From: an uncultured Alphaproteobacteria bacterium
Lineage (GTDB): Bacteria; Pseudomonadota; Alphaproteobacteria; RF32; CAG-239
Length of the DNA: 64,000 nucleotides
NCBI GenBank assembly: GCA_947630965.1
Contig: CANRJO010000002.1
Location: forward strand, 5,038 to 69,037
Direction of reading: 5' to 3'
Part shown: positions 2,913 to 64,000 of the stretch, piece after piece
Position numbering within the stretch: position 1 is the first letter of the stretch
Layout of the letters: every line of letters starts with the position of its first letter
The notes under the pieces: generated by a model
What the model saw: the letters and a program-made list of their open reading frames with translations, nothing else
What the model was told of the DNA's origin: nothing
The model's database searches: none
Made by a program: the position numbers and the translations under genes

Positions 2913-4769
2913 TTAATGATGGAAGTATTTAAATATTTTTTCAGCCGTTTTTTTACTGATGCCTTCCACTTTCATCAAATCTGGGATGAGCGCCTGTTTA
3001 ATATCCTCCGCCGAGCCAAAGTGCGCAAGCAGATCGCGCTTTCTTTTGGCGCCAATGCCCTCAATTTCATCAAGACTTGATTTATAAATGGATTTTGCGC
3101 GTTTTTTGCGGTGCGTGCCAATTGCGAATCGATGCGCCTCGTCGCGCAGATTTTGTAGATAAAACGCCACAGGCGATCGATACGGCAATGCAAAGCTTTC
3201 ACGCCCCAAAATATGGTAAAATTCTTTGCCTGCGTTGCGCTCTGGACCTTTGGATATGGCAATAATCGTGATGCCTGTTAAATCAAAATTTTTCAGGCTT
3301 TCATGCACGGCGTGAAGTTGCCCTAAACCGCCGTCAAGCAAAATGACATCGGGGCGATTTTCGGGCGTTAGTTTTTCAAAACGGCGCGTTAAAACTTCTT
3401 GCATCATGGCGAAGTCGTCGTTTGTGATGTTTGGGTTTTTGATGTTAAACGTGCGGTAGGCTTTTTTATCAAAGCCTTCGGGGGTTGCCACAACCATAGC
3501 CCCCACGGCAAAACTTCCCTGATTGTGCGAGTTATCATAAATTTCTATGCGTTTGGGAAGGTTTGGCAACCCGAAATATGTTTTCATTTCCTCAAGGTTT
3601 TTCTGCACCGAAGATTCCATGGCAATTTTCCGTTCCAGTGCCGCCAGAGCATTATTTTTGGCATTTTCAATCAGTTTTGCTTTTTTGCCGCGTTCAAATG
3701 TTAAGATTTTAACGCCGAGCGCTTCTTCCAAAAAGTTTGCGCTATCTAAAGTTTCAGAAATATAAATTTCTTTGGGCGGGATGTGATTGGCATAAAACTC
3801 ACTGATAAATGCCTCCAAAATTTCAGCATCTGTCGCGTCTTCTGTTTGTTTCGGGAAATATGGCACATTGCCGCAGTTTTGCCCGCCGCGAATGATAAAA
3901 AGCTGAATGCAGACTAGTCCGTTTTTGCGCGCAATGGCAATAATATCAACAGATTTCAAGTCAGCATATTCCACCAAATAACCCGTCTGAACCGAGGTCA
4001 GAGCCTTGATTCTATCACGCAACGCCAAAGCCTGCTCGTAGTCCATATTTTCACTTGCGGCGCGCATTTGCTTGGAAAGCGTTTCCTGAATTTTGGCATT
4101 TTTGCCTTCCAAGAAATCCACCACATCGCGGACAAGCGCGCGGTAATCATCCTTGCTGATTTTATCACAACACGGCGCCGAGCAACGCTTAATTTGGTAT
4201 AAAAGGCACGGGCGCTCGCGGTTTTTGAACTGTGTGTCGCGACAAGAACGGAGCAAAAACGCCTTTTGGAGCGTGTCCATCACGTTGTTGACCGCCATGG
4301 CGTTCACAAAAGGTCCGAAATAGCGGCATTTATCGGCGCGGCGTCCACGGGCTTTGCGCAGGGCGGGATAATCTTCCGCCAAGTTAATCATCAGGTGCGG
4401 AAAGGTTTTATCGTCTTTGAGCAAGATGTTAAACCGCGGCGAAAAGCGCTTAATCAGCTCATTTTCCATTAAAAGCGCCTTTGCCTCGTTTTCAACAATA
4501 ATAAACTCCATGCGATCCACTTCCGCCACCATGCGCTTTAAGCGAAGCGGTAATTTATCAAACTTAGTGTAAGCCACAATGCGCTTTTTGATGTTTTTGG
4601 CTTTGCCGACGTAAAGAACCTCGCCCGAGGCGCTGATCATGCGGTAAACGCCCGGCTTTTCAGGTGCAAGCCGAACATTTTTTTCAAGAACTTCTAAACC
4701 GTGTTGAATATTTGACATCTTTACCTCATGAGGTATAATATAACGCATATTTTTGAAAAGTGAAAACAT
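2913..4769 (-). CDS. uvrC: Excinuclease ABC subunit C
   Basis: N-terminal GIY-YIG motif (GVYRMISASGEVLYVGKAKNIKKRI), a UvrBC-interaction region, and C-terminal RNaseH-like and HhH regions. 618 aa. Confidence 0.9.
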   Translation of the reverse strand: MFSLFKNMRYIIPHEVKMSNIQHGLEVLEKNVRLAPEKPGVYRMISASGEVLYVGKAKNIKKRIVAYTKFDKLPLRLKRMVAEVDRMEFIIVENEAKALLMENELIKRFSPRFNILLKDDKTFPHLMINLAEDYPALRKARGRRADKCRYFGPFVNAMAVNNVMDTLQKAFLLRSCRDTQFKNRERPCLLYQIKRCSAPCCDKISKDDYRALVRDVVDFLEGKNAKIQETLSKQMRAASENMDYEQALALRDRIKALTSVQTGYLVEYADLKSVDIIAIARKNGLVCIQLFIIRGGQNCGNVPYFPKQTEDATDAEILEAFISEFYANHIPPKEIYISETLDSANFLEEALGVKILTFERGKKAKLIENAKNNALAALERKIAMESSVQKNLEEMKTYFGLPNLPKRIEIYDNSHNQGSFAVGAMVVATPEGFDKKAYRTFNIKNPNITNDDFAMMQEVLTRRFEKLTPENRPDVILLDGGLGQLHAVHESLKNFDLTGITIIAISKGPERNAGKEFYHILGRESFALPYRSPVAFYLQNLRDEAHRFAIGTHRKKRAKSIYKSSLDEIEGIGAKRKRDLLAHFGSAEDIKQALIPDLMKVEGISKKTAEKIFKYFHH

Positions 4770-4841: not shown

Positions 4842-5201
4842 ATGATTATCAATAGTAATGATAAGTTACAAAGAAACATCTTGACCAACAAGTGTTTCTA
4901 CCAAACTACCGCTCAAATTATGCGCGATTTTGAGCAGAAGGGCTATGCCAACTCTGCCGATGAAACCGCTAAAGTAATTACTGCTTATCATGCCCTTGTT
5001 CAGAAAAAAACTAAAAACAACTACAGCAAAGATTATAATGAAGCTTTCGGCAAAATAGATAATGCCATTCGGAATATGGCGAACAAAGTTTTTTATACCT
5101 ATGATAAAGAAAGCTTTGATTATGCTTATCACTCCTTCCAAAATTTTGATTATATCAATGCCATTATCGGGCGGCAACGTATGAAAAAGCAAAAGCCTTA
5201 G
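4842..5201 (+). CDS. Hypothetical protein (119 aa)
   Basis: Intact ORF between uvrC and a gpsA-like gene. No recognisable motif. Its AT-rich upstream region is consistent with a promoter. Confidence 0.35.
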   Translation: MIINSNDKLQRNILTNKCFYQTTAQIMRDFEQKGYANSADETAKVITAYHALVQKKTKNNYSKDYNEAFGKIDNAIRNMANKVFYTYDKESFDYAYHSFQNFDYINAIIGRQRMKKQKP

Positions 5202-7009: not shown

Positions 7010-7129
7010 ATACGTCACTCTGAGCGGAGCGAAGAGTCCAGGAGGAAAAACGAATCAAATTGTCATGCTGAACTCGTTTCAGCATCTTGTTTATGAGATC
7101 CCGAAACAAGTTCGGGATGACAATAAGGA
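7010..7129. repeat. Composite of small palindromic elements: type F (cgtcactctgagc…agagtccagga) followed by type E (two adjacent hairpins gtcatgctgaaYtcgtttcagcatc and atcccgaaacaagttcgggat)
   Basis: A near-identical E copy is at 24991-25052. F-like copies are at 24935-24973, 37497-37587, 44858-44897 and 62491-62530. Confidence 0.75.
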
Positions 7130-7280
7130 TGAGTTTGTTTTCACCTGGATTCTTCAACCCCTAAAGGGGTTTCAGAATGACGTACAGAGCGGGTTGCAGG
7201 CACCACCCGCCGTTCCACAGGATGACAGAGAGAGTAAAAGAAAAGGCGCCGGGAGGCGCCTTTTCTGAGGAAAGGAAGGA

Positions 7281-7955
7281 TTAATAATATTTCCAAGCAA
7301 CTGCTGGATTCTTTACATCGCACCATTTAATAGCCGTGGCAACAGCAACGGGTGTTGGGGTACCCGAGTTCCCGCCATGCGCGTCAGGTGATCCAATGTC
7401 GTTACTACTATTGCCGACGTAAAACTTGTCCAAGCCATTAAATGGAGAGTCATCATAGCTCGCACTACCAGCACCTGCGGTAACACCAACAAGACCTGAG
7501 CCTTGCCCGGAGCCCCAATCGCCTGTTACAACCGTCACGCAAGCTTCCGTGCTCAGGCCGGTATATTCAATCGTAAATGCAGCACCATCATTAGCTGAGG
7601 ATAAATCAGAGGCTTTAATATATACTTTACCACCAAATGCGTTGGATAACTCAAAATCAGAGTCTGAAGAGTAATTAGACGCAGTCAACTGTGTGGCATT
7701 GTACATATCATTCGGGACAATACCGAACTTAACGGCTTGACCGTTACCTAAGCCCACGTATGTGCCTTGAGTGGAAAATAATGTACGGATGTTTGCCACC
7801 AACATGGAAACCTGATCCGTTGTCTTGTTAATTTTGTATTTGTTCATGGCCTTGGAATAACCGGCGATACCGCCAACGGACAACACGCCGATAATGGCAA
7901 GCACGCCTAACATTTCAACCATCGAACGGCCCTGCTCGTTAAAATTTCTCATCAA
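7281..7955 (-). CDS. Type IV pilin-like protein with a prepilin-type N-terminus
   Basis: N-terminus MMRNFNEQG|RSMVEMLGVLAIIGVLSVGG: a short basic leader, Gly at the cleavage site, Glu at +5, then a hydrophobic helix. 224 aa, with a Gly/Ser-rich C-terminal half. Confidence 0.6.
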   Translation of the reverse strand: MMRNFNEQGRSMVEMLGVLAIIGVLSVGGIAGYSKAMNKYKINKTTDQVSMLVANIRTLFSTQGTYVGLGNGQAVKFGIVPNDMYNATQLTASNYSSDSDFELSNAFGGKVYIKASDLSSANDGAAFTIEYTGLSTEACVTVVTGDWGSGQGSGLVGVTAGAGSASYDDSPFNGLDKFYVGNSSNDIGSPDAHGGNSGTPTPVAVATAIKWCDVKNPAVAWKYY

Positions 7956-8479: not shown

Positions 8480-8635
8480 TTTGTTTTCCTTACGTTTTTA
8501 ACTTTTAATTAACTTTTTAGGCAAAGAAAACCCTTATCTCCCTCTTGTCCACAAGAATCTCTTTCCTAAAACCGGCGGTTTTAAATAGAATCGAGAGGGT
8601 GAGGTGTTTCGGGAATGATAATATGATTCAATTTT

Positions 8636-8675
8636 TCCTGGATCCTTCACTGCGTTCAGGATGACGGAGGGAGGG
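8636..8675. repeat. Short repeat element D (cctggatccttcactgcgttcaggatgacgg)
   Basis: Further copies at 25069-25105 and 25623-25660. Variants at 54483-54520 and 62546-62601. Confidence 0.7.
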
Positions 8676-24595: not shown

Positions 24596-24900
24596 TCTAA
24601 TGGACGATTCATCGTTCAAAAAGAGGATTTGAAATTCACGTACGCTTAAGGTCTTACTCGTAAGGGTTGCCAGAAATGGCAACCCTAACTCGTTTCGGTC
24701 ACTTGCTTTGTAAAAGTTGTATCGGTCGTTATCACTTCCTCACAACTTTAACAAAGCTACGCCGCTTGTGGTAAAAACAACCCGTCGGGGTTGTTTTTAT
24801 CCTCGCGCGCTAAAATTCCAAATCCTCTTTTCTCACTTCTACTCGCCTCATTATCCGCATTCCCGCGGACTATGAAAAAAAATAAGAATTAGTTTTTTAT
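24596..24900. repeat. Repeat element C (~300 bp); second copy at 43255-43560
   Basis: Long stretches near-identical to 43255-43560, for example ctaactcgtttcggtcacttgctttgtaaaa… and ttaacaaagctacgccgcttgtggtaaaaacaacccgt.ggggttgtttttatcctcgcg.gctaaaattccaaatcctcttttctcacttctactcgcctcattatccgc. Both copies lie directly after the stop of a +-strand gene (aspS, fabG). Confidence 0.8.
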
Positions 24901-25362
24901 CCTCATTCCCAAGGACTATGAAATAGCCTACTGACGTCATTCTGACGACCGTAGGGAGGAAGAATCCAGGTGGAAATAAATTCATCCTTATTGTCATGCT
25001 GAATTCGTTTCAGCATCTTCCTTATGAGATCCCGAAACAAGTTCGGGATGACATTTTGATTTCTTTTTTCCTGGATCCTTCACTGCGTTCAGGATGATGT
25101 TGTGTGCCTGTTGGCGTCTTGGAAGCAACTTCACGCGTGATGTCATAAAAAAATACTTGCAAAAATCAGATTTTTATTTAACATAAACCCTGCCGTCGTT
25201 GGGCGGTGGTGTTCACAAAACATCTTTACCAACTAAACTCCTTGTTAAGGGGAGTTTCCGATATAAGGCTTTTGCTCGAATAAGGAAAACTGACAGTTGG
25301 CAGTTTTGTGGCTCCCCACCTTTTTTATAAAGGTGGTTTTCTTTAACCTCAAGGAGCTGAAA

Positions 25363-25614
25363 ATGAAAATAAAAAACAAAGATCTGACACTTTACATCAA
25401 AAAAACAATGATGACGCTTTTTCGTGAAGAACGTATTAAAAGGGGCGAAACTCTGGAACAAACGGCGCGTAAAATCAACATTCCGCTTTATGAACTTGAT
25501 TTCTTGGAATGCGGAAGAGGCTGTATTTCTTGGAAAAAAATGATTGATTATTTAGAAATGTACAATAAAACGCTTAAAATTACTTTAGAAGACGACCCCG
25601 ATGAAAGTAGCTAA
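25363..25614 (+). CDS. Small HTH-like protein (putative XRE-type regulator), copy 1
   Basis: Start reassigned to the internal ATG at 25363, preceded by AAGGAG with 7-nt spacing. The segment LFREERIKRGETLEQTARKINIPLYELDFLECG resembles an XRE helix-turn-helix. Confidence 0.5.
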   Translation: MKIKNKDLTLYIKKTMMTLFREERIKRGETLEQTARKINIPLYELDFLECGRGCISWKKMIDYLEMYNKTLKITLEDDPDESS

Positions 25615-25915
25615 TTTGTTGCCCTGGATCCTTCACTGCGTTCAGGATGACGGACGGAGAGGGTTGCCACCATAGCAAGCTAACAATCGCGTGATGTCAT
25701 AAAAAAATACTTGCAAAAATCAGATTTTTATTTAACATAATCTCTGCCGTCGTTGGGCGGTGGTGTTCACAAAACACTTTTCTAGTAAACTCCTTAAATA
25801 AGGGGAGTTTCCGATATAAGGCTTTTGCTCGAATAAGGAAGACTGATTACTAGCAGTTTTGTGGCTCCCCACCTTTTTTATAAAGGTGGTTTTCTTTAAC
25901 CTCAAGGAGCTGAAA

Positions 25916-26176
25916 ATGAAATTAAAAAACAAAGATCTGACACTTTACATCAAAAAAACAATCATGATGCTTTTTCGTGAAGAACGCCTCAAAAGGGGCG
26001 AAACTCTGGAACAAACGGCACGCAAAATTGATATTCCGCTTTATGAACTTGATTTCTTGGAATGTGGGAAAAATTGCCTTTCTTGGCGCAAAATGATTGA
26101 TTATCTAGAGATGTACAATAAAACGCTTAAAATTACTTTAGAAGACGACCCCGATGAAAGTACCAACGACTTTTGA
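25916..26176 (+). CDS. Small HTH-like protein (putative XRE-type regulator), copy 2 (paralog of 25363-25614)
   Basis: Same RBS and start context at 25916. About 85% identical to copy 1. Followed by a hairpin terminator. Confidence 0.5.
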   Translation: MKLKNKDLTLYIKKTIMMLFREERLKRGETLEQTARKIDIPLYELDFLECGKNCLSWRKMIDYLEMYNKTLKITLEDDPDESTNDF

Positions 26177-26234: not shown

Positions 26235-26591
26235 TTATTCAACTGCAGGACTTCCATCAGCTTGATATACCGTTGTTATATCATCTTCTGTTGTTAGCAT
26301 GTAGCTGCCGTCAGCATATACATCGCAACACTTCAGGTTATCCGCAACCAACGAGCCATCCTCCCGATATAACGCCACGCGATCCGTTGCTTCCAACTTA
26401 TACCAACCGTTGGCATAAACATGTTTTTTAAAAAACTTGTCTATCAGAAGTGTTCCGTCAGGCCGATACATAGACCAACCATCCTCGGTTTCCAACATGT
26501 AGTAACCATTTTCAAAAATGTACTTTTGCTTAAATAACAAGTTGAAAAGCTCGCGCAAGTACCATCCGATTTGTTTTAAAATAGTTTTCAT
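26235..26591 (-). CDS. NGWY-repeat protein (three 33-aa repeats), member 1 of a tandem paralog array
   Basis: N-terminus MKTILKQIGWYLREL…. Repeats of the form C.V(Y/F).NGWY.L.T..G.ALYR.D.SLVAD.L. No signal peptide. Confidence 0.5.
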   Translation of the reverse strand: MKTILKQIGWYLRELFNLLFKQKYIFENGYYMLETEDGWSMYRPDGTLLIDKFFKKHVYANGWYKLEATDRVALYREDGSLVADNLKCCDVYADGSYMLTTEDDITTVYQADGSPAVE

Positions 26592-26662
26592 AATTATTAT
26601 TTTTTAAGGATTAAACAAAATAATTTTTTTCTAAAGAATATATTATTTTCTTTTTAGAAAGA

Positions 26663-26705
26663 AATCAACAAAAAACCTCCGAATACACCAAGTATTCAGA
26701 GGTTT
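26663..26705 (-). terminator. Rho-independent terminator downstream of the 251-aa NGWY-repeat gene
   Basis: Minus-strand sense: cctctgaatacttggtgtattcggagg followed by ttttttg. Confidence 0.6.
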
Positions 26706-26720
26706 TTGTTTTAAAAACGC

Positions 26721-27476
26721 TTACTCCATTATTAAAAATAAGGAACCATCATCCCGATAAAATGCCGTGCCGTCCGCCGTTGTGACTACAGACAAGCCTT
26801 TGCGCTGAATATGGCAATTTTGTATTTTATCAGCAATCAAGGCCTCATCAGCACCATACAAAGCTCTGTTCTCCGGCGATTCTAGAAGGTACCAACCGTT
26901 TTTGTAAACAAAGCAAAACAACAAATTATCAGCAACTAACGACTCATCTTTCCGATACAAAGCCATACCTTCTTTTGACTTTAATTGATACCAACCGTTC
27001 AAATAAACATCGCAATGCTTGAGTTTATCCGCAACCAAACTTCCGTCTGCGCGGTACAAAGTCGTGCCTTTCTTTGTTTGCAGAAAATACCACCCGTTAT
27101 GAAAAACATGGCAATCTTCCAAATGATCAGCAACCAAAGACTCATCAGCTTGATACAATGCAAAAGATTTATCTGTTTTCAGTTTATACCAACCGTTGTC
27201 AAAAACTTGGCACTTTTTCAGTTTATCGGCAACAAGCGAATCATCGGCGCGATATAATGCGGTTCCGTTTGCCGTTTCTAACGCATACCAACTGTTTGGA
27301 TAAACGTCACAATCTTTTAACTGATTGGCAACCAAGGAGCCGTTTTTGCGGTATAAAGCATTGCCACAAGCCGAGCGCAACATGTACCAACCGTTATCAA
27401 AAATGTACCTGTGTTTCAAACATACGTGGTAAAACTTACGTAAGCGCCACTGAATTTTTTTCAAAATAGTCTTCAT
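26721..27476 (-). CDS. NGWY-repeat protein (about seven 33-aa repeats), member 2
   Basis: MKTILKKIQWRLRKF… followed by about seven tandem 33-residue repeats, each with a single Cys, NGWY, ALYRADxSLVAD. Confidence 0.55.
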   Translation of the reverse strand: MKTILKKIQWRLRKFYHVCLKHRYIFDNGWYMLRSACGNALYRKNGSLVANQLKDCDVYPNSWYALETANGTALYRADDSLVADKLKKCQVFDNGWYKLKTDKSFALYQADESLVADHLEDCHVFHNGWYFLQTKKGTTLYRADGSLVADKLKHCDVYLNGWYQLKSKEGMALYRKDESLVADNLLFCFVYKNGWYLLESPENRALYGADEALIADKIQNCHIQRKGLSVVTTADGTAFYRDDGSLFLIME

Positions 27477-27616
27477 AATTATTATTTTTTAGGATTAAAC
27501 AAAATAATTTTTTTCTAAACAATATATTATCTTATTTTTAGAAAAAATCAATAAAAAAGCGTCTTCGAATAAAAAAACTCCGGATACCGATGTAACCGAA
27601 GTTTTAAGCTTTTGCG

Positions 27617-28177
27617 CTAATAATCTCTTTCTAACAACATGCCGTCAGATCGGTATAAAGCACGACCTTTTTTCGTTCTTACTTCATACTTTCCGTCAGC
27701 GTAAACATCGCACCACTTTAGTTTATTGGCAACAAGCGATTCATCAGCGCGGTATAATGCAATTCCGTTTGCCGTTTCTAATGCATACCAACCGTTGTCA
27801 TAAACATTGCACCAATTCAACTTATCAGCCACAAGCGATTCATCGGCGCGGTATAATGCGGCTCCGTTTGGCGTTCCCAACTCATACCAATTGTTGTCAA
27901 AAAGATTGCACCAGTTCAAATTATCAGCAACAAGCGAATCATCGGCGCGGTATAATGCGGTTCCATTTTTCGTTCCCAACTCATACCAATTGTTAATCCA
28001 AATATAGCAATAAGTCAATTTATCCGCAACCAAACTTCCGTCAGATCGGTATAAAGCCGTTCCGTTTGGCGTTCTTATAAAATACCACCCATTTTCAAAA
28101 ACATACCTGTCCTTTAAAAAATAGTCATGATAAAGCTTGCGCAAATGCTGCTTAATCTTTTTCAAAATAGTTTTCAT
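27617..28177 (-). CDS. NGWY-repeat protein (about five repeats), member 3
   Basis: Start reassigned to the conserved MKTILKKIKQHLRKL. The ORF track begins 8 codons earlier. The upstream leader is conserved with members 1 and 2. Confidence 0.5.
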   Translation of the reverse strand: MKTILKKIKQHLRKLYHDYFLKDRYVFENGWYFIRTPNGTALYRSDGSLVADKLTYCYIWINNWYELGTKNGTALYRADDSLVADNLNWCNLFDNNWYELGTPNGAALYRADESLVADKLNWCNVYDNGWYALETANGIALYRADESLVANKLKWCDVYADGKYEVRTKKGRALYRSDGMLLERDY

Positions 28178-28385
28178 AATTTTTATTTTTTTAATAATCA
28201 TACAAAATAATTTTCTTTCGGGGCGGATGTTAGCATCTTTTTTATGGAAATCAACAAAAAAATCCCAAGCAATACTAAAATGCAGCTCTTGGAATAAAGC
28301 TGTTACGTATTTATTGACTTATTTGGGCATATTTGGTAACATTTGAAAAAGCATTGTTCATATTGGCTTTATAAAATTATTCAGA

Positions 28386-32848: not shown

Positions 32849-34054
32849 TTACTTGCTCGTCCAGTTTGGTGAGGAAGGAATATCCGTCAACGTTGTTGTC
32901 GCAGATGCTGTCGGGTGGTATGAAACACCTTTATAAACCAATGTGTCCGTCAAGTTAGAGGCGGTGATTTCTATAGTTTCCGGCCAAAGATCCGAACCAC
33001 CCTCTAACTCCAGAAAAACGGGTTTTTGCGGGGTGCCTGACAATACCAAATTATACTTATATTGCTTTTCATTTGTCATGCGCTCCGTAATATTGAAAGT
33101 AACCCGGCTTCCTTCCTCAATAACATATTCTCCCTTATGATCATAAGCAAAAAGTTTTTCTGCCGTTATGTTCGCCGTTGTTCCCTTAAATCTGAAAGGA
33201 GCTCCGTTAGAAAAAGTGTTTGCTTTCGTAATATTTATTTGCGCATTCTCAAAAGTTAACTCTGAGCCATGAAAAACACTTCCGTTAGGATTTGTGAAAG
33301 AGGCTGTCAAATCGGTGCCCGCAAATTGAACTTTTGAGGATGTGAAAACATTACAATGTATAGAGTTAATATCAAGGTCAATTTTATCTTTTAAAACATA
33401 AGTTGCCTTATTGAACGCCACATTTATTTGATTTTCTGTCACCTTAGAATCATAAATTAAAGAAACATTTTCTAAAGAAATCTCGTTTTCTGTATTAGAA
33501 CTGTTAAGGTAAACATTGTTATTGTGAGTTATGCTGTCTTGATGATGCAGATTAATGTTTTTGAAAGCGGTGTTGTTTTCTGCCGTAATGACTGTTTTAT
33601 TTGCTTGATTCGCGGAAGTTGATAACGTATGTCCGCCACCGTCAATCGTAGTGTTGGCGGCAAGCGTAAAGCCTTGGTTTGTTGGAATTGTGATGTCGCT
33701 TTTCATCGTGATGAGCTTGCATTTTCCTGAACCGGCGAGGTATTTAAGTTCGTCGTAGTTGGTCGCGATACAAGCTTTTTGACAAAGTGTTAAATTTTCA
33801 TTGCCCCTACATTTAATGATGTCAGCGCACCACGATGTTTTGTCCGATTCTGTAAAGCCAAGCTTGGTGCAATCGTAATTGACGCATCTTTTATAGGACT
33901 TATCAAAAGGGCAATACATATACCCGTTATCCGCACAGTTCGGGTCATTATCTTTGGAATAACCCAAGCTCGCGCAATCTGGCACTTTCTCACAATCCAT
34001 GGCATTTGCCACATTCGCAAACATCAAAGCCAACAAAAACAAAATATAGCGCAT
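32849..34054 (-). CDS. Secreted cysteine-rich protein with an N-terminal Cys module and a beta-helix-like Asn/Thr-rich C-terminal region (paralog of 62623-63846)
   Basis: Start reassigned to MRYILFLLALMFANVANA (signal peptide). An 8-Cys module DCEKVPDCASLGYS…NCADNGYMYCPFD…C..YDC. Then TIDGGGHTL and N-rich repeats. Confidence 0.5.
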   Translation of the reverse strand: MRYILFLLALMFANVANAMDCEKVPDCASLGYSKDNDPNCADNGYMYCPFDKSYKRCVNYDCTKLGFTESDKTSWCADIIKCRGNENLTLCQKACIATNYDELKYLAGSGKCKLITMKSDITIPTNQGFTLAANTTIDGGGHTLSTSANQANKTVITAENNTAFKNINLHHQDSITHNNNVYLNSSNTENEISLENVSLIYDSKVTENQINVAFNKATYVLKDKIDLDINSIHCNVFTSSKVQFAGTDLTASFTNPNGSVFHGSELTFENAQINITKANTFSNGAPFRFKGTTANITAEKLFAYDHKGEYVIEEGSRVTFNITERMTNEKQYKYNLVLSGTPQKPVFLELEGGSDLWPETIEITASNLTDTLVYKGVSYHPTASATTTLTDIPSSPNWTSK

Positions 34055-34083
34055 TTTCTTCTCCTTATTCGAATCGATCAAAA

Positions 34084-34175
34084 AAAGGGTACCTTTAAAT
34101 GCAACGCGTTAACCAACGCAAAATTGCGGGTTTTAGAGCTTGACAAGCCCATTTTTTTAGGGTACCTTTTTTTGC
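34084..34175. promoter_or_regulatory. ~92-bp element bounded by GGTACC-centred palindromic boxes (AAAGGTACCTTTAAA) around an embedded TTGACAAG, upstream of the Cys-rich gene
   Basis: Near-identical full copies at 62364-62458 and 63906-64000. Isolated boxes at 34265-34283, 34348-34367 and 37640-37660. Confidence 0.5.
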
Positions 34176-34596
34176 TTTTAGCGATCTTTACAATCAAGGA
34201 AAAATTAAAATGTTTTGAAAACTCGATGTTCATTCGAGCTATTAACTTTTTGAAATATAACGAAAAAAGGTACCTTAAAAAAGTGCCTTTGTCAATAATA
34301 AAAAATCAAGTAAATTCAATGTTTCGTGGTTTTTAAAAGTATAGCAATTTTAAGGTACCCTTTTTTTGATATATTCGAATCGAGAGGGGGAAATTTTTTT
34401 CTAAACAAGGAAAATGGACTATTTTGGGCTTTAAGCAACGCAAATTCGGGAATATGCCGTATTTTGCACCCCCTCAATGCTAAAAGCCCAAAGCCTCTTT
34501 TAAAAAAAGACGTTTGTCTTTGGAGTAAAGATTTTAAAAAATCGCTCAGAAATTAGACAAATGGTCGTTTTTTAAGAGGTTAAAGGAAGGGTAAGG

Positions 34597-37317
34597 ATGC
34601 GTAAAGTAGCGGCAATTATTTTTTTGGGCCTCATCAGCTTAAGCACTTCTGTGTATGGCGCATGTTTTAACGAGTGCAAAGCCGTGCCGGAATGTGCCAA
34701 AATGGGGTATAAATTACAAGGGGATATTTTCTGCCCTGATGGTTACATTACGTGTCCGTTCGATTCCCAATATATTTGGTGTAAAGAATATACCTGTAAA
34801 GATGGACGTTATAGTGATACGGAAGAGCTAACGGGCGAGAAAGGTTACGTTTGCGATGAGGTAGATTATCATCATCGGAAGTGTTATCATTGCCATTGTG
34901 ATCCTGACCCCGAAGAGTGTCAATGGAGTAATCTCAACAAAGGCGTTGGCGAGTTAGGCGATAGATGTTGTGACGGGCACTATGCCAGTTGTAGAAATTT
35001 ATGCCAAGACAAGGTCAGCGTGCCGGCTCACGCGCATGGTAATAAAGAGTCTTGCACGGGGTGCAATATTACAAAAGATATTATCACAAGTTGGTCATGT
35101 GATGACTGGTATGATCAAATGGGCGAAGCCTGTTATGCCCGCCAATGCCCCGATGGTTATACCATAACAGATGCTCGTATTGAGGATTGTGGACGCACAA
35201 AAGATCAAGGTTGGACATGGGAGAGCAAAGGTCAAAGCGGCGAGCAGATTTGCGGCAAATGCACCGCAAAGAGTTGTTCAGGCGATTACAGCACAGATTA
35301 CCCAGGCGTGGATAGTTGTGGCGATAGCGGCTCCAAGGGGTGGACTTGGAACCAAAGCGGTTGGAGTGGCGATGACGCCTGCGGCAAATGTACGGCAAAA
35401 GAGTGTTTACCAGGTTTTAGCACACAATATTCAAGTATAGCGAGTTGTGGCACAAGTGGCAACAAGGGTTGGACATGGGAGCAATCAGATCAATATGCGG
35501 GTAATGACATTTGCGGGAAATGCACCAAGAAAGAATGTGAAGAAGGTGACACTGACCCCGATATCAAGAGTTGCAAGTTTGAAAGCGATTATTTAGGAAG
35601 CAAGACTGAAAACGGATATTATAGCGAAGATAAAAAGTGTTACACTTGCCATTGTGCGGCGAATGATACGAACTGTCATTGGAGTGAGGGAAACAAAGGT
35701 CAGGGCAGATTGGAAACAAAATGTTGCAATGGTAAATATGCTACCTGCACATCAAATTGCGTTAAAGTTGAAGTGCCGGATCATGGTCAATGTGCTGATC
35801 GTTGCACAGGCTGTGAAACGGAAGTTTGTTCAGCATATAGTTGCGATAAAGGTTATCAAAAGGATAATTCACAGACAAAATGCGAAGTGGCGCCTTGTGC
35901 CAATGGTACGGCAACGGAAGCGAGCAAATGCGGGAATGGAACCGGTGCTGCAAATGGTTGGGAAACGAGCACTGACACAGGTCATTTAAGTGGTGAGAAG
36001 AAGTGTTATCAATGTACCATGAAAGATTGTCCGACAGGTGAGAGCACCGATTATCAAGATGTCAGCAAGTGTGGCACAGGTGCTTCTAAGGGAGCCGGGT
36101 GGACGAATAAGGGCACAACAAATTATCATGGCGACACAAGATGTTACAGTTGCAGTAAGAAAGCATGCACGGGTGGTTACGATACAAAATATAAAGATGT
36201 CAACAGCTGCGGCAAAGCGGGCGACAGTGGTTGGGACTGGAGCACAAACGGTTGGAGCGGTGATGAAGTGTGTGGTAAATGCACGCCTAAAACATGCCCG
36301 AATGGATACAGCAGCGAAAAGAAGAGTATTGATGATTGCGGCACCACAAAAGATAAAGGTTGGACATTTGAAAAATCTTCCACCAATTCCGGAGAGAATG
36401 TTTGCGGTAAGTGTGATGCTCGCCAGTGCCCAACTGATGAGAACACAAATGCTTCAGCATCAGATTGTGGCACAAGCGGTGAAAACGGTTGGACAAAGAA
36501 AACAACGGGGCATTTTGCGGGAGATAATGCTTGCTATAAGTGCGAGAAAAAGGTATGTGAAGGAGGTTCTAGCACCAAGTACCAAAGCATAAGTGACTGC
36601 TCGGCGGGGTGTGCAACTTACCACTCTGAGGGTTATTCAGGTGATCAAAAGTGTGGCGTTTGCTATTATACCGTTGATGAGCAGGTTCCTGAGAATGCAA
36701 CATGTACGTACACAACCAAATGCGAGAGAGGCACAGCCTGTACGAAATGGGATTGTAACGAGGGCTATACAAAATCAGCAGATGGCAAGAAATGTGATGT
36801 TGCCAAATGTCCGGAGGGATACGACGTACAGAAACAATCAGGCCCTGATTGCGGTAATGAAAGTGGTTGGCGTGTGGAAACTCTGGGCAAGAGCGGCAAT
36901 AAAAATTGCGGTAAATGCATTTGTGAGTCTAGTTGCACCTGGGACAATAACAATAAAGGCGAAAAAGGATCCTTAACTAATAAATGTTGCAATGGTAAAT
37001 ATGCCAATTGCACCAATAACTGCCCGAATGTTCAGGTGCCTCCGAACGCTTATGGAACAAACCCTTGCACGGCTTGCAATCAAGCGGTCAGATACGGCGG
37101 TTGGGAATGTAATGAAGGTTTCTTGAAATTAGACGGCGCATGCGTTGAGCAATGCAAAGACCCGCAAGTGGACTATGAAACTTGTTGGAATGGAAGTTTC
37201 GCCTCAGGCGGCGGTTTGTCTGACTGCGATAAGCAAGGCTATAAACACTCCAAAGGGGATTGCACTAACTTTATTGCTTGTCCGACGAATGCTAATAAAA
37301 TCCGTTGCTTACATTAG
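34597..37317 (+). CDS. Large secreted cysteine-rich modular repeat protein (906 aa)
   Basis: Signal peptide MRKVAAIIFLGLISLSTSVYGA. An N-terminal Cys module related to the 32849 and 37758 genes. About ten ~40-aa repeats of the form DCG.SG.KGWTWE..G.SG…CGKCT.K.C. Three ~50-aa modules of the form C.C..…W…NKG.G.L…CCNGKYA.C..NC..V.VP. GGA RBS upstream. Confidence 0.55.
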   Translation: MRKVAAIIFLGLISLSTSVYGACFNECKAVPECAKMGYKLQGDIFCPDGYITCPFDSQYIWCKEYTCKDGRYSDTEELTGEKGYVCDEVDYHHRKCYHCHCDPDPEECQWSNLNKGVGELGDRCCDGHYASCRNLCQDKVSVPAHAHGNKESCTGCNITKDIITSWSCDDWYDQMGEACYARQCPDGYTITDARIEDCGRTKDQGWTWESKGQSGEQICGKCTAKSCSGDYSTDYPGVDSCGDSGSKGWTWNQSGWSGDDACGKCTAKECLPGFSTQYSSIASCGTSGNKGWTWEQSDQYAGNDICGKCTKKECEEGDTDPDIKSCKFESDYLGSKTENGYYSEDKKCYTCHCAANDTNCHWSEGNKGQGRLETKCCNGKYATCTSNCVKVEVPDHGQCADRCTGCETEVCSAYSCDKGYQKDNSQTKCEVAPCANGTATEASKCGNGTGAANGWETSTDTGHLSGEKKCYQCTMKDCPTGESTDYQDVSKCGTGASKGAGWTNKGTTNYHGDTRCYSCSKKACTGGYDTKYKDVNSCGKAGDSGWDWSTNGWSGDEVCGKCTPKTCPNGYSSEKKSIDDCGTTKDKGWTFEKSSTNSGENVCGKCDARQCPTDENTNASASDCGTSGENGWTKKTTGHFAGDNACYKCEKKVCEGGSSTKYQSISDCSAGCATYHSEGYSGDQKCGVCYYTVDEQVPENATCTYTTKCERGTACTKWDCNEGYTKSADGKKCDVAKCPEGYDVQKQSGPDCGNESGWRVETLGKSGNKNCGKCICESSCTWDNNNKGEKGSLTNKCCNGKYANCTNNCPNVQVPPNAYGTNPCTACNQAVRYGGWECNEGFLKLDGACVEQCKDPQVDYETCWNGSFASGGGLSDCDKQGYKHSKGDCTNFIACPTNANKIRCLH

Positions 37318-37374: not shown

Positions 37375-37757
37375 AAAATAACCTTAAGCGTTTACAATCA
37401 GGCACTTTTTACAATTAATAGCTTTCGCTACACCGGCAAACAATGAAACAACAAAAACAAAATATATTTCTTTCCATTCCTTGCGTCTGCCTGCTGATGT
37501 TATTCTGAGGCGAAACTGAAGAATCTAGGTGGAAAATATAGCTCATTTGTTGTCCTGGACTCTTTGCCTATGGCTCAGAGTGACGGTTTGGAGTGTGTTT
37601 TACTCCTTTCCCGATGTTCGAGGTTGGCGAATCGATCAAAAAAAGGGTACCTTTAAATTGCTATATCAGAGCAACAAAAAACGTCCATTTTGAAATGGAC
37701 GTTTTTGTTAAGAACGATATTTTTTTCTAGCTTCTTATTCTTGCGGTTGCTTTCCGA

Positions 37758-38090
37758 TTAAAGGCATTTATAAAAGCCACCGCAAGTGTCACGGCTAGCG
37801 CGGAGCCCTGCCTTCACACAATCCTCTTTAGAAAAGGCATAATCCTCCGAGCAGCAACTTTTATAATACCATCTGTGATAAGGGCAAGGGTTTGTTAACC
37901 GATAACCTGCCTGGCATTTTGTTAGAGTATAACCTTCTGCCCGGCATTTTTCTTCCGGTTGTTTTTGTGAGGAACCAGTGCTCGTGTTACCCGAGCTCTC
38001 GCCCGGCAAAAACATCACTCCGGCATGAGCCGAAAACGCAAATGAGCCTAAAAAGAGCAATGTTAAGATTGTTAATTTCGTTTTGACCAT
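37758..38090 (-). CDS. Small secreted cysteine-rich protein (110 aa) related to the N-terminal Cys module family
   Basis: Signal peptide MVKTKLTILTLLFLGSFAFSAHA. KCRAEGYTLTKCQAGYRLTNPCPYHRWYYKSCC… resembles the GY…C.DGY..CPFD module. Confidence 0.4.
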   Translation of the reverse strand: MVKTKLTILTLLFLGSFAFSAHAGVMFLPGESSGNTSTGSSQKQPEEKCRAEGYTLTKCQAGYRLTNPCPYHRWYYKSCCSEDYAFSKEDCVKAGLRASRDTCGGFYKCL

Positions 38091-43254: not shown

Positions 43255-43560
43255 CGCGTCTAATGGGCGATTAATCGTTCAAAAAGAGGATTTGAAATTC
43301 ACGTACCATTAATGGTCTTACTCGTAAGCTTTGCGCTTAACGCAAAGCTAACTCGTTTCGGTCACTTGCTTTGTAAAACCTGCCACGGTCGCTACCGCTC
43401 CCTAGCAGTTTTAACAAAGCTACGCCGCTTGTGGTAAAAACAACCCGTTGGGGTTGTTTTTATCCTCGCGTGCTAAAATTCCAAATCCTCTTTTCTCACT
43501 TCTACTCGCCTCATTATCCGCGTTCCTACGGCTTAGGTGCAAAAAATAAGGATTTTTTTT
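43255..43560. repeat. Repeat element C copy (~300 bp), paired with 24596-24900
   Basis: Near-identical to 24610-24880, including ttaacaaagctacgccgcttgtggtaaaaacaacccgttggggttgtttttatcctcgcgtgctaaaattccaaatcctcttttctcacttctactcgcctcattatccgcg. Confidence 0.8.
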
Positions 43561-43690
43561 ATCCGCGTTCTCGCGGCTTGGGATAAAAATAAGGATTTTT
43601 TTTATCCGCGTTCCCACGGCTTGGGATAAAAATAAGGATTTGTTTTTTATCCGCGTTCCTGCGGCTTGGGGATAAATTATAAAAAGGCAT
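43500..43690. repeat. Tandem array of ~44-bp direct repeats (about four copies) at the 3' edge of element C
   Basis: Unit atccgcgttcNNNcggcttgggataaaaataaggatttttttt occurs at ~43515, 43560, 43603 and 43648. Two degenerate copies are at 24845-24930. Confidence 0.75.
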
Positions 43691-54430: not shown

Positions 54431-54678
54431 CAAGGGGAAAATTTAGGGAATGTGCATGATGAGTAATTAGCTATGTTTTTTGTCCTGGATCTTTCACTTC
54501 GTTCAAGATGACGTACCGAGGCAGCCGCTCCTTTCTTATCCAAGTTTCGACAAGGTGGAGAACCGTTTAGATAGAGTGAAAAATAAAGCGGTAAAAATTC
54601 TAGCGTACTAAAAAAGGTACATGAATTTTGCGAGACCCGAAAAAACGGCTTTAGATGCGCCGCTATACGTCTTTCCAC

Positions 54679-61660: not shown

Positions 61661-61737
61661 GGCGGACGTAGCTCAGTTGGTAGAGCCCCGGTTTGTGGTA
61701 CCGGTTGTCGTGAGTTCGAGCCTCATCGTCCGCCCCA
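61661..61737 (+). tRNA. tRNA-His (anticodon GTG) with an encoded G-1 and an encoded 3' CCA
   Basis: Cloverleaf: extra 5' G, acceptor GCGGACG/CGTCCGC, D-arm GCTC-AGTTGGTA-GAGC, anticodon arm CCGGT-TTGTGGT-ACCGG, T-arm GTGAG-TTCGAGC-CTCAT, discriminator C plus CCA. Confidence 0.85.
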
Positions 61738-62215: not shown

Positions 62216-62363
62216 CTTTCACGTTTTTGTGAAAGCCTTTATTTTATCCATAAAGTAAATTTTTCCCTAATCTATCCCTAATTTTGTGGAGCTGATACCT
62301 GTTCTATGGTAATTTTATTATAAAAACCGCCTGTATGAATATGGGCGTTTTTTTAATGGTGCA

Positions 62364-62458
62364 ATTTAAAGGTACCTTAAAAATTTGGGGTTGTCAAGCT
62401 CTAAAACCCGCAGTTTCGCGTTGGTTAATCTGTTGCATTTAAAGGTACCTTTAAATTG
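62364..62458. promoter_or_regulatory. GGTACC-box element (two palindromic boxes flanking TTGTCAAGCTCTAAAACCCGCAG) upstream of the second Cys-rich gene
   Basis: atttaaaggtaccttaaaaatttggggttgtcaagctctaaaacccgcagtttcgcgttggttaatctgttgcatttaaaggtacctttaaattg. Same orientation relative to its gene as the 34084-34175 copy. Confidence 0.5.
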
Positions 62459-62490
62459 ATGCGTCAGGAAAGGAGTGAAACACACTCCAT

Positions 62491-62601
62491 ACGTCACTCT
62501 GAGCCATAGGCGAAGAGTCCAGGACAACAAATTAGCTATATTTTCTCCTGGATCCTTCGCGAATGCCCTTCAGGCAAAGCTCAGGATGACGGACGGAGAG
62601 G
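62491..62601. repeat. Type F plus type D small palindromic elements, immediately upstream of the Cys-rich gene
   Basis: acgtcactctgagccataggcgaagagtccaggacaac (F) followed by cctggatccttcgcgaatgcccttcaggcaaagctcaggatgacggacggagagg (D variant with an internal insertion). Confidence 0.7.
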
Positions 62602-62622: not shown

Positions 62623-63846
62623 ATGCAATATGTGTTGATTTTGTTGGGTGTGATGTTTGCGAATGTGGCAAATGCGATGGATTGTGAGAAGGTGCCTGAT
62701 TGTGAAAGCTTGGGTTATTCCACCAAAGATGACCCAAATTGTGCGAATGATGGCTATATGTACTGTCCGTTTGATCAGGATTATAAGGTGTGCGTGCAGT
62801 ACAATTGCGCTGCCTTAGGTTTTACGGAATCGGACAAAACGTCTTGGTGTGCAGACCTCATCAAATGCAAGGGCAACGAAAAAATGACACTTTGTCAAAA
62901 ACCATGTTTTGCAACCAATTATACTAGCCTGAAAGAACTTGCGGAATCGGGAGATTGTAAAGTCACAACTGTGCAGGGCGATATCACTATCCCCGAAAAC
63001 CAAAGTGTCACTCTTGCAGAAAACACTGTCATCGATGGCGGAGGTCATACACTTTATACATCGGGAAATCAAAAAGACTTAACCGTTTTTTCCATGGGTA
63101 ACAACACAGGTTTGAAAAACCTTAAACTAAAACATACACAAAAAGAGACGCAAGATGGTTATTCTCTCTTGTTCTCTTTAGCTCCCGACGATGTCATTTC
63201 TCTTGAAAACGTGGATATTACTGTTAATTCAGACAATGTGGAAGATGTGCGCGCGCCTGTTATTGGCAATGGTATTTATAATATCCATGGAAAATTTGCA
63301 CTTACTCTAGACTCAAGGATTCGACTTATCGCTTTCCAATTTAATACCATGAATTTCACGGATGCACAGGTTTCCATTATTACTCAGGGAACGGAAACTG
63401 GTAACGCTGATATGGCGGAGGGTTCAACGTTAACGTTTACAAACTCTACAGTGGAGGTGAGTGTTGATGGCTCCACTTTTACAAAAAACGGAACTGCAAC
63501 CTTTATAAACAGTCAAGCAAACATTAGCGCAGCTGCTCTTTTCTTTGGAGATACAACAGAGAATCATGAAATCTTCTTAGATAAATCTAGCCTTACAAGC
63601 AAGACGACTTATCGTATCAGCAACCACATTCAAAAAAGCATTACCCTCAAGGGAACAGGCGAACAGCCCTCTATTTTAGAAATGACATATAATAAGCCGG
63701 ATACGGATGTTCCGACCAATATTGTGGCGACAAACACAACGGATAAAGTGATTCTTAACGGTATTACCTATCGTCCGAAACAGGCAGGAATGACTAAACT
63801 TTCGGAAATAGGTAGCTCGAAAAACTGGGAAAAGGTTTTACAATAA
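62623..63846 (+). CDS. Secreted cysteine-rich/beta-helix-like protein (paralog of 32849-34054)
   Basis: Signal peptide MQYVLILLGVMFANVANA. Cys module DCEKVPDCESLGYS…NCANDGYMYCPFD… about 70% identical to its paralog over the first 150 aa, then divergent. AAGAGGAG RBS upstream. Confidence 0.55.
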   Translation: MQYVLILLGVMFANVANAMDCEKVPDCESLGYSTKDDPNCANDGYMYCPFDQDYKVCVQYNCAALGFTESDKTSWCADLIKCKGNEKMTLCQKPCFATNYTSLKELAESGDCKVTTVQGDITIPENQSVTLAENTVIDGGGHTLYTSGNQKDLTVFSMGNNTGLKNLKLKHTQKETQDGYSLLFSLAPDDVISLENVDITVNSDNVEDVRAPVIGNGIYNIHGKFALTLDSRIRLIAFQFNTMNFTDAQVSIITQGTETGNADMAEGSTLTFTNSTVEVSVDGSTFTKNGTATFINSQANISAAALFFGDTTENHEIFLDKSSLTSKTTYRISNHIQKSITLKGTGEQPSILEMTYNKPDTDVPTNIVATNTTDKVILNGITYRPKQAGMTKLSEIGSSKNWEKVLQ

Positions 63847-63905
63847 GCATTTTTCTCTTTATCTACATCTAACGCCGCATTACTGCGGCGTTTTTTAATG
63901 GTGCA

Positions 63906-64000
63906 ATTTAAAGGTACCTTAAAAAAATGGGGTTGTCAAGCTCTAAAACCCGCAGTTTTGCGTTGGTTAATCCGTTGCATTTTAAGGTACCTTTAAATTG
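63906..64000. promoter_or_regulatory. Third full copy of the GGTACC-box element, downstream of the Cys-rich gene at the window edge
   Basis: atttaaaggtaccttaaaaaaatggggttgtcaagctctaaaacccgcagttttgcgttggttaatccgttgcattttaaggtacctttaaattg, same orientation as 62364-62458. Confidence 0.5.

Follow-up and report, generated by a model that had tools for sequence, protein, structure and literature searches.

Pairs of short palindromes centred on GGTACC, here called boxes, stand in front of a family of secreted Cys-rich protein genes in the 64,000-nucleotide stretch analysed here (the window; positions 5,038 to 69,037 of contig CANRJO010000002.1, assembly GCA_947630965.1, from an uncultured alphaproteobacterium). 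On balance, these box pairs probably bound very short invertible promoter cassettes (invertons), with the boxes acting as symmetric recombination sites. One cassette would precede each member of a large secreted Cys-rich/beta-helix family, with boxes 73 or 83-85 bp apart (centre to centre) and a core of 67-79 bp between them. A trans-acting site-specific recombinase would bind and cross over at each box, and the box would itself supply the -10 hexamer (TACCYT) for a TTGACA located in the core, 17 bp away. In the canonical orientation, the promoter would fire away from the gene, leaving it OFF or low. Recombination between both boxes would flip the core and place TTGACA 17 bp upstream of the gene-side TACCYT, turning the gene ON. 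The symmetry of the sites would also allow this enzyme to delete the core, leaving a solo box, or to swap arms between loci. By an alternative route, two successive recombinations with a box at another locus would flip the core without short-range synapsis. We infer that such a recombinase exists, that it drives the flipping and does so often and reversibly, and which of the two orientations is ON.

Paired boxes around an orientable core

Nine A/T-flanked GGTACC boxes are found in the window (GGTACC at 34088, 34161, 34269, 34354, 37646, 62371, 62444, 63913, and 63986). They correspond to the nine sites listed in an earlier note on this DNA, which had counted at least 11 palindromes. That count has to be lowered to nine, since a search allowing up to 2 mismatches gives 12 matches, of which those at 26516, 27401, and 34279 are not boxes. 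All nine lie at the 5' ends of family genes or of a decayed member. The pattern is non-random: AAAGGTACCTTT at up to 1 mismatch has 7 matches against 0.16 expected, a number reached in none of 100 shuffles, and GGTACC itself occurs 13 times against 4.7 expected, nine of these occurrences being boxed. The unboxed ones are at 7359, 26888, 31007, and 61697, the last inside a tRNA-His gene called at 61662-61737. The conserved part of the box is RGGTACCY, followed by 6-9 A/T and then TG. Written as an extended palindrome of about 24-26 bp with a symmetric centre (CA-W7-GGTACC-W7-TG), the box carries its TG 7-9 nt out.

Eight of the boxes form four paired units, in each of which the two boxes are inverted (and palindromic) copies of each other. 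The spacing from GGTACC to GGTACC is 73 bp in three units, which share a type-1 core, and 85 bp in the remaining one. The first three are the copies of about 92 bp with two boxes that had been described before; they were recovered at 34084-34170 (minus strand), 62364-62455, and 63906-64000 and are 86-92% identical, with a spacing of 73 bp and not of about 75 bp. The fourth unit (34265-34360) has the same boxes and the same TTGTCAA 14 nt inside one box, and its core is different (type 2). All four units lie upstream of paralogs in the same orientation relative to the gene, as had been proposed. Behind the copy at the window edge, immediately outside the window, comes a third paralog (399 aa), which is seen on the independent contig L001 from the European Nucleotide Archive (ENA). 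Over all loci described below, the box spacings are 73 and 83-86 bp, i.e. 6.95 and 7.9-8.2 helical turns, and such whole-turn spacing is as would be expected if a protein bridges both boxes.

The contigs fetched for nine family members from a protein search (L028-L060, 214 kb) come from five ENA sample assemblies and one NCBI metagenome-assembled genome (MAG), duplicate loci between samples included. In these contigs, a unit is present upstream of every family member examined. They add 13 distinct paired-box loci to those of the window; 12 of these stand directly before a family gene, and the remaining one (L037:2980-3058) is an orphan between the 3' ends of two convergent family genes. Together with the four window units, this gives a set of 17 distinct intact paired-box loci, all of them in family-gene intergenic regions. 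Two additional units are degenerate: in L028 the gene-side box is mutated to CGTACG, and L041 retains one intact GGTACC. Elsewhere in the retrieved contigs, the only boxed GGTACC matches loosely and falls within the terminase gene of a prophage.

When species-representative genomes amounting to 596 Gb (gigabases) were scanned for two boxes 55-75 nt apart, 25 loci only were returned. Among them, 22 belong to three related rumen Alphaproteobacteria MAGs (RGIG8116, RGIG3338, and RUG585), one to the gut alphaproteobacterial MAG MGBC103387, and two are probable chance matches. The rumen element (RGIG group) is represented by 25 near-identical copies with a spacing of 86 and a core unrelated to the window core. 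In nearly all copies, one flank enters, after about 48 nt, the gene start of another secreted-protein family (MRISILSIGAIAS..TVTSRDYVDAQDALKQ); in the copies L011:6527 and L021, this gene side is either cut off or has been replaced. The unit of MGBC103387 stands before a POMP-repeat protein. That the box is conserved across lineages while cores and target genes differ points to a protein that reads the box.

The evidence for inversion comes from the orientation of the core relative to its flanks. In the window lineage, the outer arms are polar: the distal arm reads ..TATAGCAA-box, which can be written (T)ATAG(A)GCAA-box, and the gene-side arm reads box-TTGAT. Relative to these arms, the core is canonical at 15 of the 17 loci and inverted at 2. 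One inverted case (L037:4357-4435, before a 358-aa family gene) has canonical arms, and its core matches at 62/67 positions as the reverse complement versus 37/67 forward. The other is the orphan, whose core is inverted relative to the arms and matches at 64/67 positions as the reverse complement. The RGIG flanks are polar as well (distal CTGGTCAC, gene side GTTAC-TATAAAC...); 23 of the 25 cores point one way and 2 are flipped, with identical flanks. At a locus syntenic between RGIG3338 and RGIG8116, the upstream 554 bp are identical at 505 of 552 positions, and the 80-bp core is identical (79/80) as the reverse complement only. The orientation breakpoints lie inside the palindrome. Since the arms diverge 2 nt beyond GGTACC, the exchange is confined to about 10 bp (16 bp in the RGIG copies), and a tract of about 10 bp is too short for RecA-dependent homologous recombination. 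Mis-assembly as the source of the flips was rejected by reasoning: the shared palindrome of 10-16 bp is far below usual assembler k-mers, and the flips recur in independent assemblies and lineages. Finally, the solo box at 37646, where a distal arm (the same as in L049) is joined to a proximal arm, looks like the product expected from deletion between two symmetric boxes.

The promoter elements are arranged with the same regularity. At all 17 loci, and also in a third core type (L028), TTGACA is exactly 17 bp from the TACCYT of the neighbouring box, with spacers that differ in sequence. This TTGACA points away from the gene at 15 of the 17 loci, including all four window copies. In the canonical units 3 and 4 of the window, it is aimed at the terminator hairpin of the upstream gene, and the proposed promoters of units 1 and 2 face each other. 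The proximal box is 31-34 nt from the ATG in several genes and up to about 250 nt from it in others; leaders of 31-34 nt leave no room for another promoter, so the promoter must be in the unit. Type-1 cores in the canonical orientation contain no sigma-70 promoter toward the gene. In the one flipped RGIG copy that was scanned, TGGACA-N17-TACCAT, together with an upstream TG, is listed by the consensus scan; it straddles the gene-side box and is directed at the gene. The one canonical RGIG copy scanned (L022) has TGGTCA-N19 at the same position, which is unlisted. TTGATT-N18-TAAAAA had also been considered as the RGIG core promoter and was dropped, as its -10 has no T at position 6 and TGGACA-N17-TACCAT, being supported by the scan, was preferred. 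In the third lineage (L014), TTGATT-N17-TACCTT is aimed at the gene of the POMP-repeat surface protein. Taken together, the presence of both core orientations with junctions in the palindrome and of a -35 that faces away from the gene at 15 of 17 loci is better accounted for by recombination sites than by a plain operator pair.

Genes behind the boxes and neighbouring features

The family genes at the units encode secreted proteins with the N-terminal motif C..VP.C..LGY. The 400-aa paralogs combine a signal peptide, a Cys-rich module of about 75 aa in which 10 Cys are invariant, and a right-handed beta-helix, as judged from an alignment and an AlphaFold2 model. Searches with the family proteins gave no family in Pfam, NCBIfam, or PDB sequences. 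Only a fold search with the AlphaFold2 model was informative, and it matched tailspikes, pectate lyases, and the L. reuteri SRRP adhesin. On this model, the family proteins are adhesin-like in appearance. Because beta-helix adhesin-like surface proteins are the usual cargo of invertons (PMC11892184; PMC2268961), this appearance is counted in favour of invertible cassettes. The protein search for the family gave 81 matches, and in many of these the N-terminal module is joined to a different C-terminus. The 906-aa and 401-aa window proteins were themselves not on record in the protein look-up, and no second assembly of the units at 34084-34367 was obtained. A 20-mer from the window core, used in a metagenome scan, had as its sole match an unrelated purine-rich contig (L027). 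Table 1 gives the positions of the boxes, cores, and genes in the window.

Table 1. Boxes, cores, and family genes of the window (numbering of the window).
Feature	Position	Strand	Sequence or motif	Remarks
401-aa family member	32849..34054	-		signal peptide, ~75-aa Cys-rich module, beta-helix
Gene-proximal box, unit 1	34080..34101		AAAAAAAG-GGTACC-TTTAAATG	34 nt from ATG (34054) of minus-strand 401-aa paralog
Type-1 core, unit 1	34102..34152	-	plus strand TTGACA 34140-34145, 17-nt spacer, TACCTT 34163-34168 in distal box	canonical; hexamers point away from 401-aa gene
Distal box, unit 1	34153..34174		TTTTTTAG-GGTACC-TTTTTTTG	
Distal box, unit 2	34261..34282		CGAAAAAA-GGTACC-TTAAAAAA	head-to-head with unit 1, ~100-bp spacer between
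Type-2 core, unit 2	34283..34345	+	TTGTCAA 34289-34295; minus strand TTGACA 34295-34290, N17, TACCTT 34272-34267	hexamers point away from 906-aa gene
Gene-proximal box, unit 2	34346..34367		AATTTTAA-GGTACC-CTTTTTTT, then TTGAT arm	238 nt upstream of 906-aa gene
906-aa Cys-rich secreted protein	34597..37317	+	C..VPEC..MGY (N-terminal)	no Pfam or NCBIfam match
Family pseudogene behind solo box	37378..37477	-	KKYILFLLF / SLFAGVAKAINCKK / VPDCKRL / GY in three frames	truncated, frameshifted; wedged against 3' end of 906-aa gene
Solo box	37638..37659		minus strand: distal-type arm ..CTCTGATATAGCAATTTAAA joined directly to proximal-type arm CTTTTTTTGATCGATTCG	without core
Distal box, unit 3	62363..62384		AATTTAAA-GGTACC-TTAAAAAT	just past terminator hairpin 62328-62347
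Type-1 core, unit 3	62385..62435	+	minus strand TTGACA 62397-62392, N17, TACCTT 62374-62369	canonical; hexamers point away from 407-aa gene
Gene-proximal box, unit 3	62436..62457		CATTTAAA-GGTACC-TTTAAATT	perfect 18-bp palindrome, then TTGATG arm
407-aa family member	62623..63846	+		AlphaFold2 model with predicted local distance difference test (pLDDT) 84: right-handed beta-helix resembling adhesins and tailspikes
Unit 4	63905..63999	+	boxes 63913 and 63986, type-1 core	canonical; after terminator hairpin 63871-63892, before 399-aa paralog

The element does not cover every Cys-rich gene in the window: a secreted Cys-rich protein of 110 aa with a related C..GY motif (37758-38090, minus strand) has no upstream GGTACC box. 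The gene-proximal box of unit 3 is separated from the 407-aa gene by a leader of 174 nt, into which other small repeats have been inserted. Short dispersed hairpin repeats of the CCTGGATCCTTC...CAGGATGA and GTCATGCTGAAC...GTTCAGCATGAC types are found at 62464-62600, 37532-37614, 8612-8664, 25045-25097, 25598-25650, 54459-54511, 7046-7160, and 24954-25068. They occur in unrelated places and in some family-gene leaders, between the gene-side box and the ribosome-binding site, and are absent from other leaders. These hairpin repeats behave like true miniature inverted-repeat transposable elements (MITEs) or repetitive extragenic palindromic (REP)-like elements.

Several arrangements in other genomes are worth recording. 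On L037, the minus-strand 358-aa family gene lies between two 92-bp units of the same orientation (2980-4435), and the 1.3-kb gene segment between the boxes at 3053 and 4357 could itself be invertible. On L033-L036, which represent four sample assemblies, a prophage (terminase, MuF, capsid, S24 repressor) and a tRNA gene adjoin the family gene P0004 and its unit on the upstream side. In RGIG8116, two divergent family genes are separated by the order box-core-box-core'-box (L010, positions 1228-1420), in which the cores share the middle box. The head-to-head layout at window positions 34084-34367 has here a counterpart with three boxes. A syntenic comparison of two rumen MAGs (L004 4100-5400 and L005 6800-8000) revealed an upstream gene and flank that are 91% identical, followed by a family gene that is a different paralog in each; this difference suggests gene replacement or exchange at the boxes.

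Besides the box-bearing loci, the window contains other repeats and a pilin gene. Tandem arrays of 99-bp repeats (26318-28098) lie inside two minus-strand open reading frames (ORFs; 26721-27476 and 27617-28201), to which a third ORF (26235-26591) is similar. These three ORFs have conserved upstream repeats (26546-26679, 27431-27563, and 28132-28266) and no Pfam family. Tandem repeats of about 45 bp (TTATCCGCGTTCC..GCGGCTTGGGATAAAAATAAGGATTTTTT) are found in two intergenic regions (43514-43679 and 24851-24923), which also have in common a 204-bp repeat (24679-24882 and 43342-43545; 87% identical). A PilS/bundlin-like type IV pilin gene (Pfam E-value 2e-12) with hairpin repeats on its flanks is encoded on the minus strand at 7281-7955. 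Rfam finds two tRNAs only in the window. A small RNA or riboswitch reading of the units was rejected: they do fold, with the two boxes pairing in a stem of 17 bp (z -3 to -5.7), but this stem is a trivial consequence of the boxes forming an inverted repeat, and there is no covariation to test.

Competing interpretations

A number of observations weigh against invertible cassettes. The proposed -10, TACCTT, matches TATAAT at 3 of 6 positions, and for this reason TTGACA-N17-TACCTT is not listed by the consensus scan. Type-2 cores also contain TTGTCA-N16-TAAATT/CAGAAT in the forward direction, from which the gene could be transcribed when the core is canonical; in unit 2, the scan lists TTGTCA-N16-TAAATT on the plus strand (34289-34316), aimed at the 906-aa gene. 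Given the weak -10 and this forward promoter, the assignment of ON and OFF is offered as an inference. All four window copies share one orientation, so that the window alone gives no sign of inversion. At seven loci compared across 3-4 sample assemblies, which are consensus assemblies and may hide minority orientations, the orientation is identical, and the flips are thus documented between loci and genomes, not as ongoing switching. No recombinase was found among the 24 window proteins scanned with Pfam (four family genes and 20 others, a partial survey), nor among 1,890 ORFs of at least 70 aa from the window and 60 loci in a phmmer search with Hin, XerD, and FimB sequences. Known systems often encode the recombinase elsewhere. 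Finally, the site distance of 73-86 bp is at or below the minimum of 82 bp between sites that has been reported for efficient Cre recombination (bioRxiv 10.1101/2024.12.21.629127). Direct synapsis at 73-86 bp would need strong bending, unless the flips arise by two-step recombination between loci.

The main rival is the interpretation given in the earlier note, an operator pair. A dimeric transcription factor would loop the 73-86 bp between the boxes, occlude the -10-like TACCYT, and co-regulate the family, and the flips would be accidents, for instance of template switching between short inverted repeats. Much of the observed layout agrees with this. The half-sites are palindromic and dimer-sized (palindromes of about 24-26 bp), their spacing is in whole helical turns, they overlap the -10-like hexamers, and they are kept across lineages with unrelated cores; from palindromy and this conservation, recognition by a dimeric protein can be argued. 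The uniform orientation between samples and the failure to find a recombinase also count in its favour. The part of the earlier interpretation that stands is a non-random, family-specific layout, paired in helical phase around a -35-like hexamer. What it does not account for is a core present in both orientations (inverted in 2/17 and 2/25), contrary to a fixed arrangement of promoter and operator, together with a strong -35 that faces away from the gene and, in units 3 and 4, a terminator hairpin. Nor does it explain why clean flips, whose junctions fall within the palindrome, occur in two lineages and at a locus in synteny, or why the solo box has no core. Moreover, among the genes called at the family loci that the protein look-up retrieved, none for a regulator is linked to a unit. 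The regulators proposed earlier (25297-25614 and 25859-26176) are ORFs of about 105 aa within a 553-bp tandem duplication (25246-26176, 91% identical) about 8 kb away. An XRE-like character of these ORFs is an impression gained by eye from the sequence; one of the two was scanned, with no NCBIfam match, and nothing ties either of them to the boxes. An operator pair is accordingly viewed as the less probable explanation, though one with a real chance of being correct.

Two further alternatives appear much weaker. The units could be MITE-like mobile cassettes, short non-autonomous elements with terminal inverted repeats that have spread in either orientation beside the family, a possibility that had also been raised earlier. 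The units do end in inverted repeats and exist as many near-identical copies (25 across the RGIG MAGs, at least 17 in the window lineage), cores are more alike than flanks at the syntenic locus (79/80 in the core against 91% in the flank), and contigs often break at the element. Yet no copy at an unrelated gene was found in the window, the retrieved contigs, or the RGIG loci, which argues, within the sequence reached, against a free MITE. No target-site duplication was seen either: on the outside, the boxes are flanked by conserved polar arms (TATAGCAA... / ...TTGAT) instead of direct repeats, and these arms are unlike random insertion sites. In addition, no transposase with matching ends was found in about 440 kb, the paired-box pattern has 0 matches in a viral collection of 2.9 million contigs, and the same boxes on three unrelated cores are not expected of a single MITE family. 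This explanation is thus considered improbable. Least probable of all, and quite unlikely, is an epigenetic switch of the pap type, in which the two GGTACC would be methylation targets and exclusive protection of the distal or proximal box by a regulator would set a heritable ON or OFF state. Two identical short palindromes at fixed spacing upstream of surface-protein genes do resemble the two GATC sites of the pap operon, and GGTACC is not avoided elsewhere in the window (4 unboxed against 4.7 expected). However, no methyltransferase was found among the window proteins in the same partial Pfam survey, conservation reaches about 10 bp on either side of GGTACC, past a methylase target, and the flips would remain unexplained.

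The invertible-cassette interpretation can be extended to a natural loxPsym-like system, which is put forward tentatively and appears rather doubtful at present. One trans-acting recombinase would act on dozens of symmetric GGTACC boxes per genome to invert, delete, or swap cores of 67-80 bp. Few known invertons would be as short, and the crossover site would serve as the -10. The box, present in at least three gut/rumen alphaproteobacterial lineages, would have been recruited to three unrelated surface-protein families: the Cys-rich beta-helix proteins, the small 'TVTSRDYVD' secreted proteins, and a POMP-repeat protein. If invertible cassettes are indeed what the boxes bound, genome-wide phase variation would concern 17 to 25 or more adhesin-like genes per genome in uncultured gut/rumen Alphaproteobacteria, which would explain surface variation in these poorly known symbionts. 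Such cassettes would be unusual in being at the lower size limit for site-specific inversion, in having symmetric sites that permit inversion, deletion, and exchange, and in carrying the -10 inside the recombination site. They would offer a minimal substrate for a recombinase and a compact natural switch for synthetic biology. A warning for annotation also follows: pairs of palindromes around a -35 hexamer resemble operators and may be inversion sites.

Comparison with known systems

By analogy, the closest parallel would be the mpl (P35) family of Mycoplasma penetrans, most of whose 38 genes are thought to be switched independently by their own adjacent invertible promoters (Horino et al. 2003, as described in PMC2268961). 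The likeness extends to a large dispersed family of surface proteins in which each gene would have its own short invertible promoter between short inverted repeats, to genes that switch independently with most of them silent at any time, and to recombinases acting at many loci (PMC2268961). The mpl host is a mollicute, whereas the host here is an alphaproteobacterium, in which inversion is read from sequence comparison. Here the ends are also individually palindromic with a symmetric centre, and the -10 apparently lies inside the repeat. An mpl cassette measures about 135 bp, against boxes 73-86 bp apart here.

In Bacteroides, globally acting recombinases drive promoter inversions at dispersed loci (PMC2268961). 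The units described here would share with them many chromosomal promoters with one inverted-repeat consensus, a link to surface structures, a gut-associated host, and a recombinase encoded elsewhere. By contrast, the GGTACC box is unrelated to the Bacteroides repeat, and its targets are single protein genes and not polysaccharide operons. The Bacteroides invertible regions are about 170-230 bp long. Invertons in general, as detected by PhaseFinder or DeepInverton, are widespread, and more than 75% of known ones are shorter than 300 nt (PMC11602134). Within this size range, the present units would be extremely short. In gut bacteria, invertons show an association with surface genes (PMC11892184).

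As regards the sites themselves, loxPsym sites undergo inversion, deletion, and exchange with similar probability (bioRxiv 10.1101/2024.12.21.629127). Their directionless symmetry is shared by the boxes, and the flipped cores, the core-less solo box, and the swapped arms match this mix of products. The loxPsym/Cre system is synthetic and needs at least 82 bp between sites, whereas the present one would be natural with sites that are closer. With the hix site of Hin, which spans about 26 bp, the boxes share half-sites in which an A/T tract leads into TGAT, as well as a crossover centre of 2 bp. The half-sites of the boxes exceed those of hix by about 3 bp, their centre, TA, is symmetric, and the search of the window and 60 loci turned up no serine recombinase. 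Invertasomes of the Hin type depend on an enhancer and on a segment that is much longer. The Correia/NEMIS elements of Neisseria resemble the units in being of about 100 bp, with terminal inverted repeats, many copies, and promoter hexamers beside genes. They are scattered at unrelated genes with TA duplications, whereas the units here keep to one gene family, are bordered by conserved polar arms, and show no duplication. Repeats similar to hix have also been mentioned in B. fragilis (Patrick et al. 2003, as cited in PMC11602134). Compared with the known systems, the features that would set the present units apart are the box distance of 73-86 bp, the palindromic ends with a symmetric centre, the apparent -10 within the repeat, and the host lineage.

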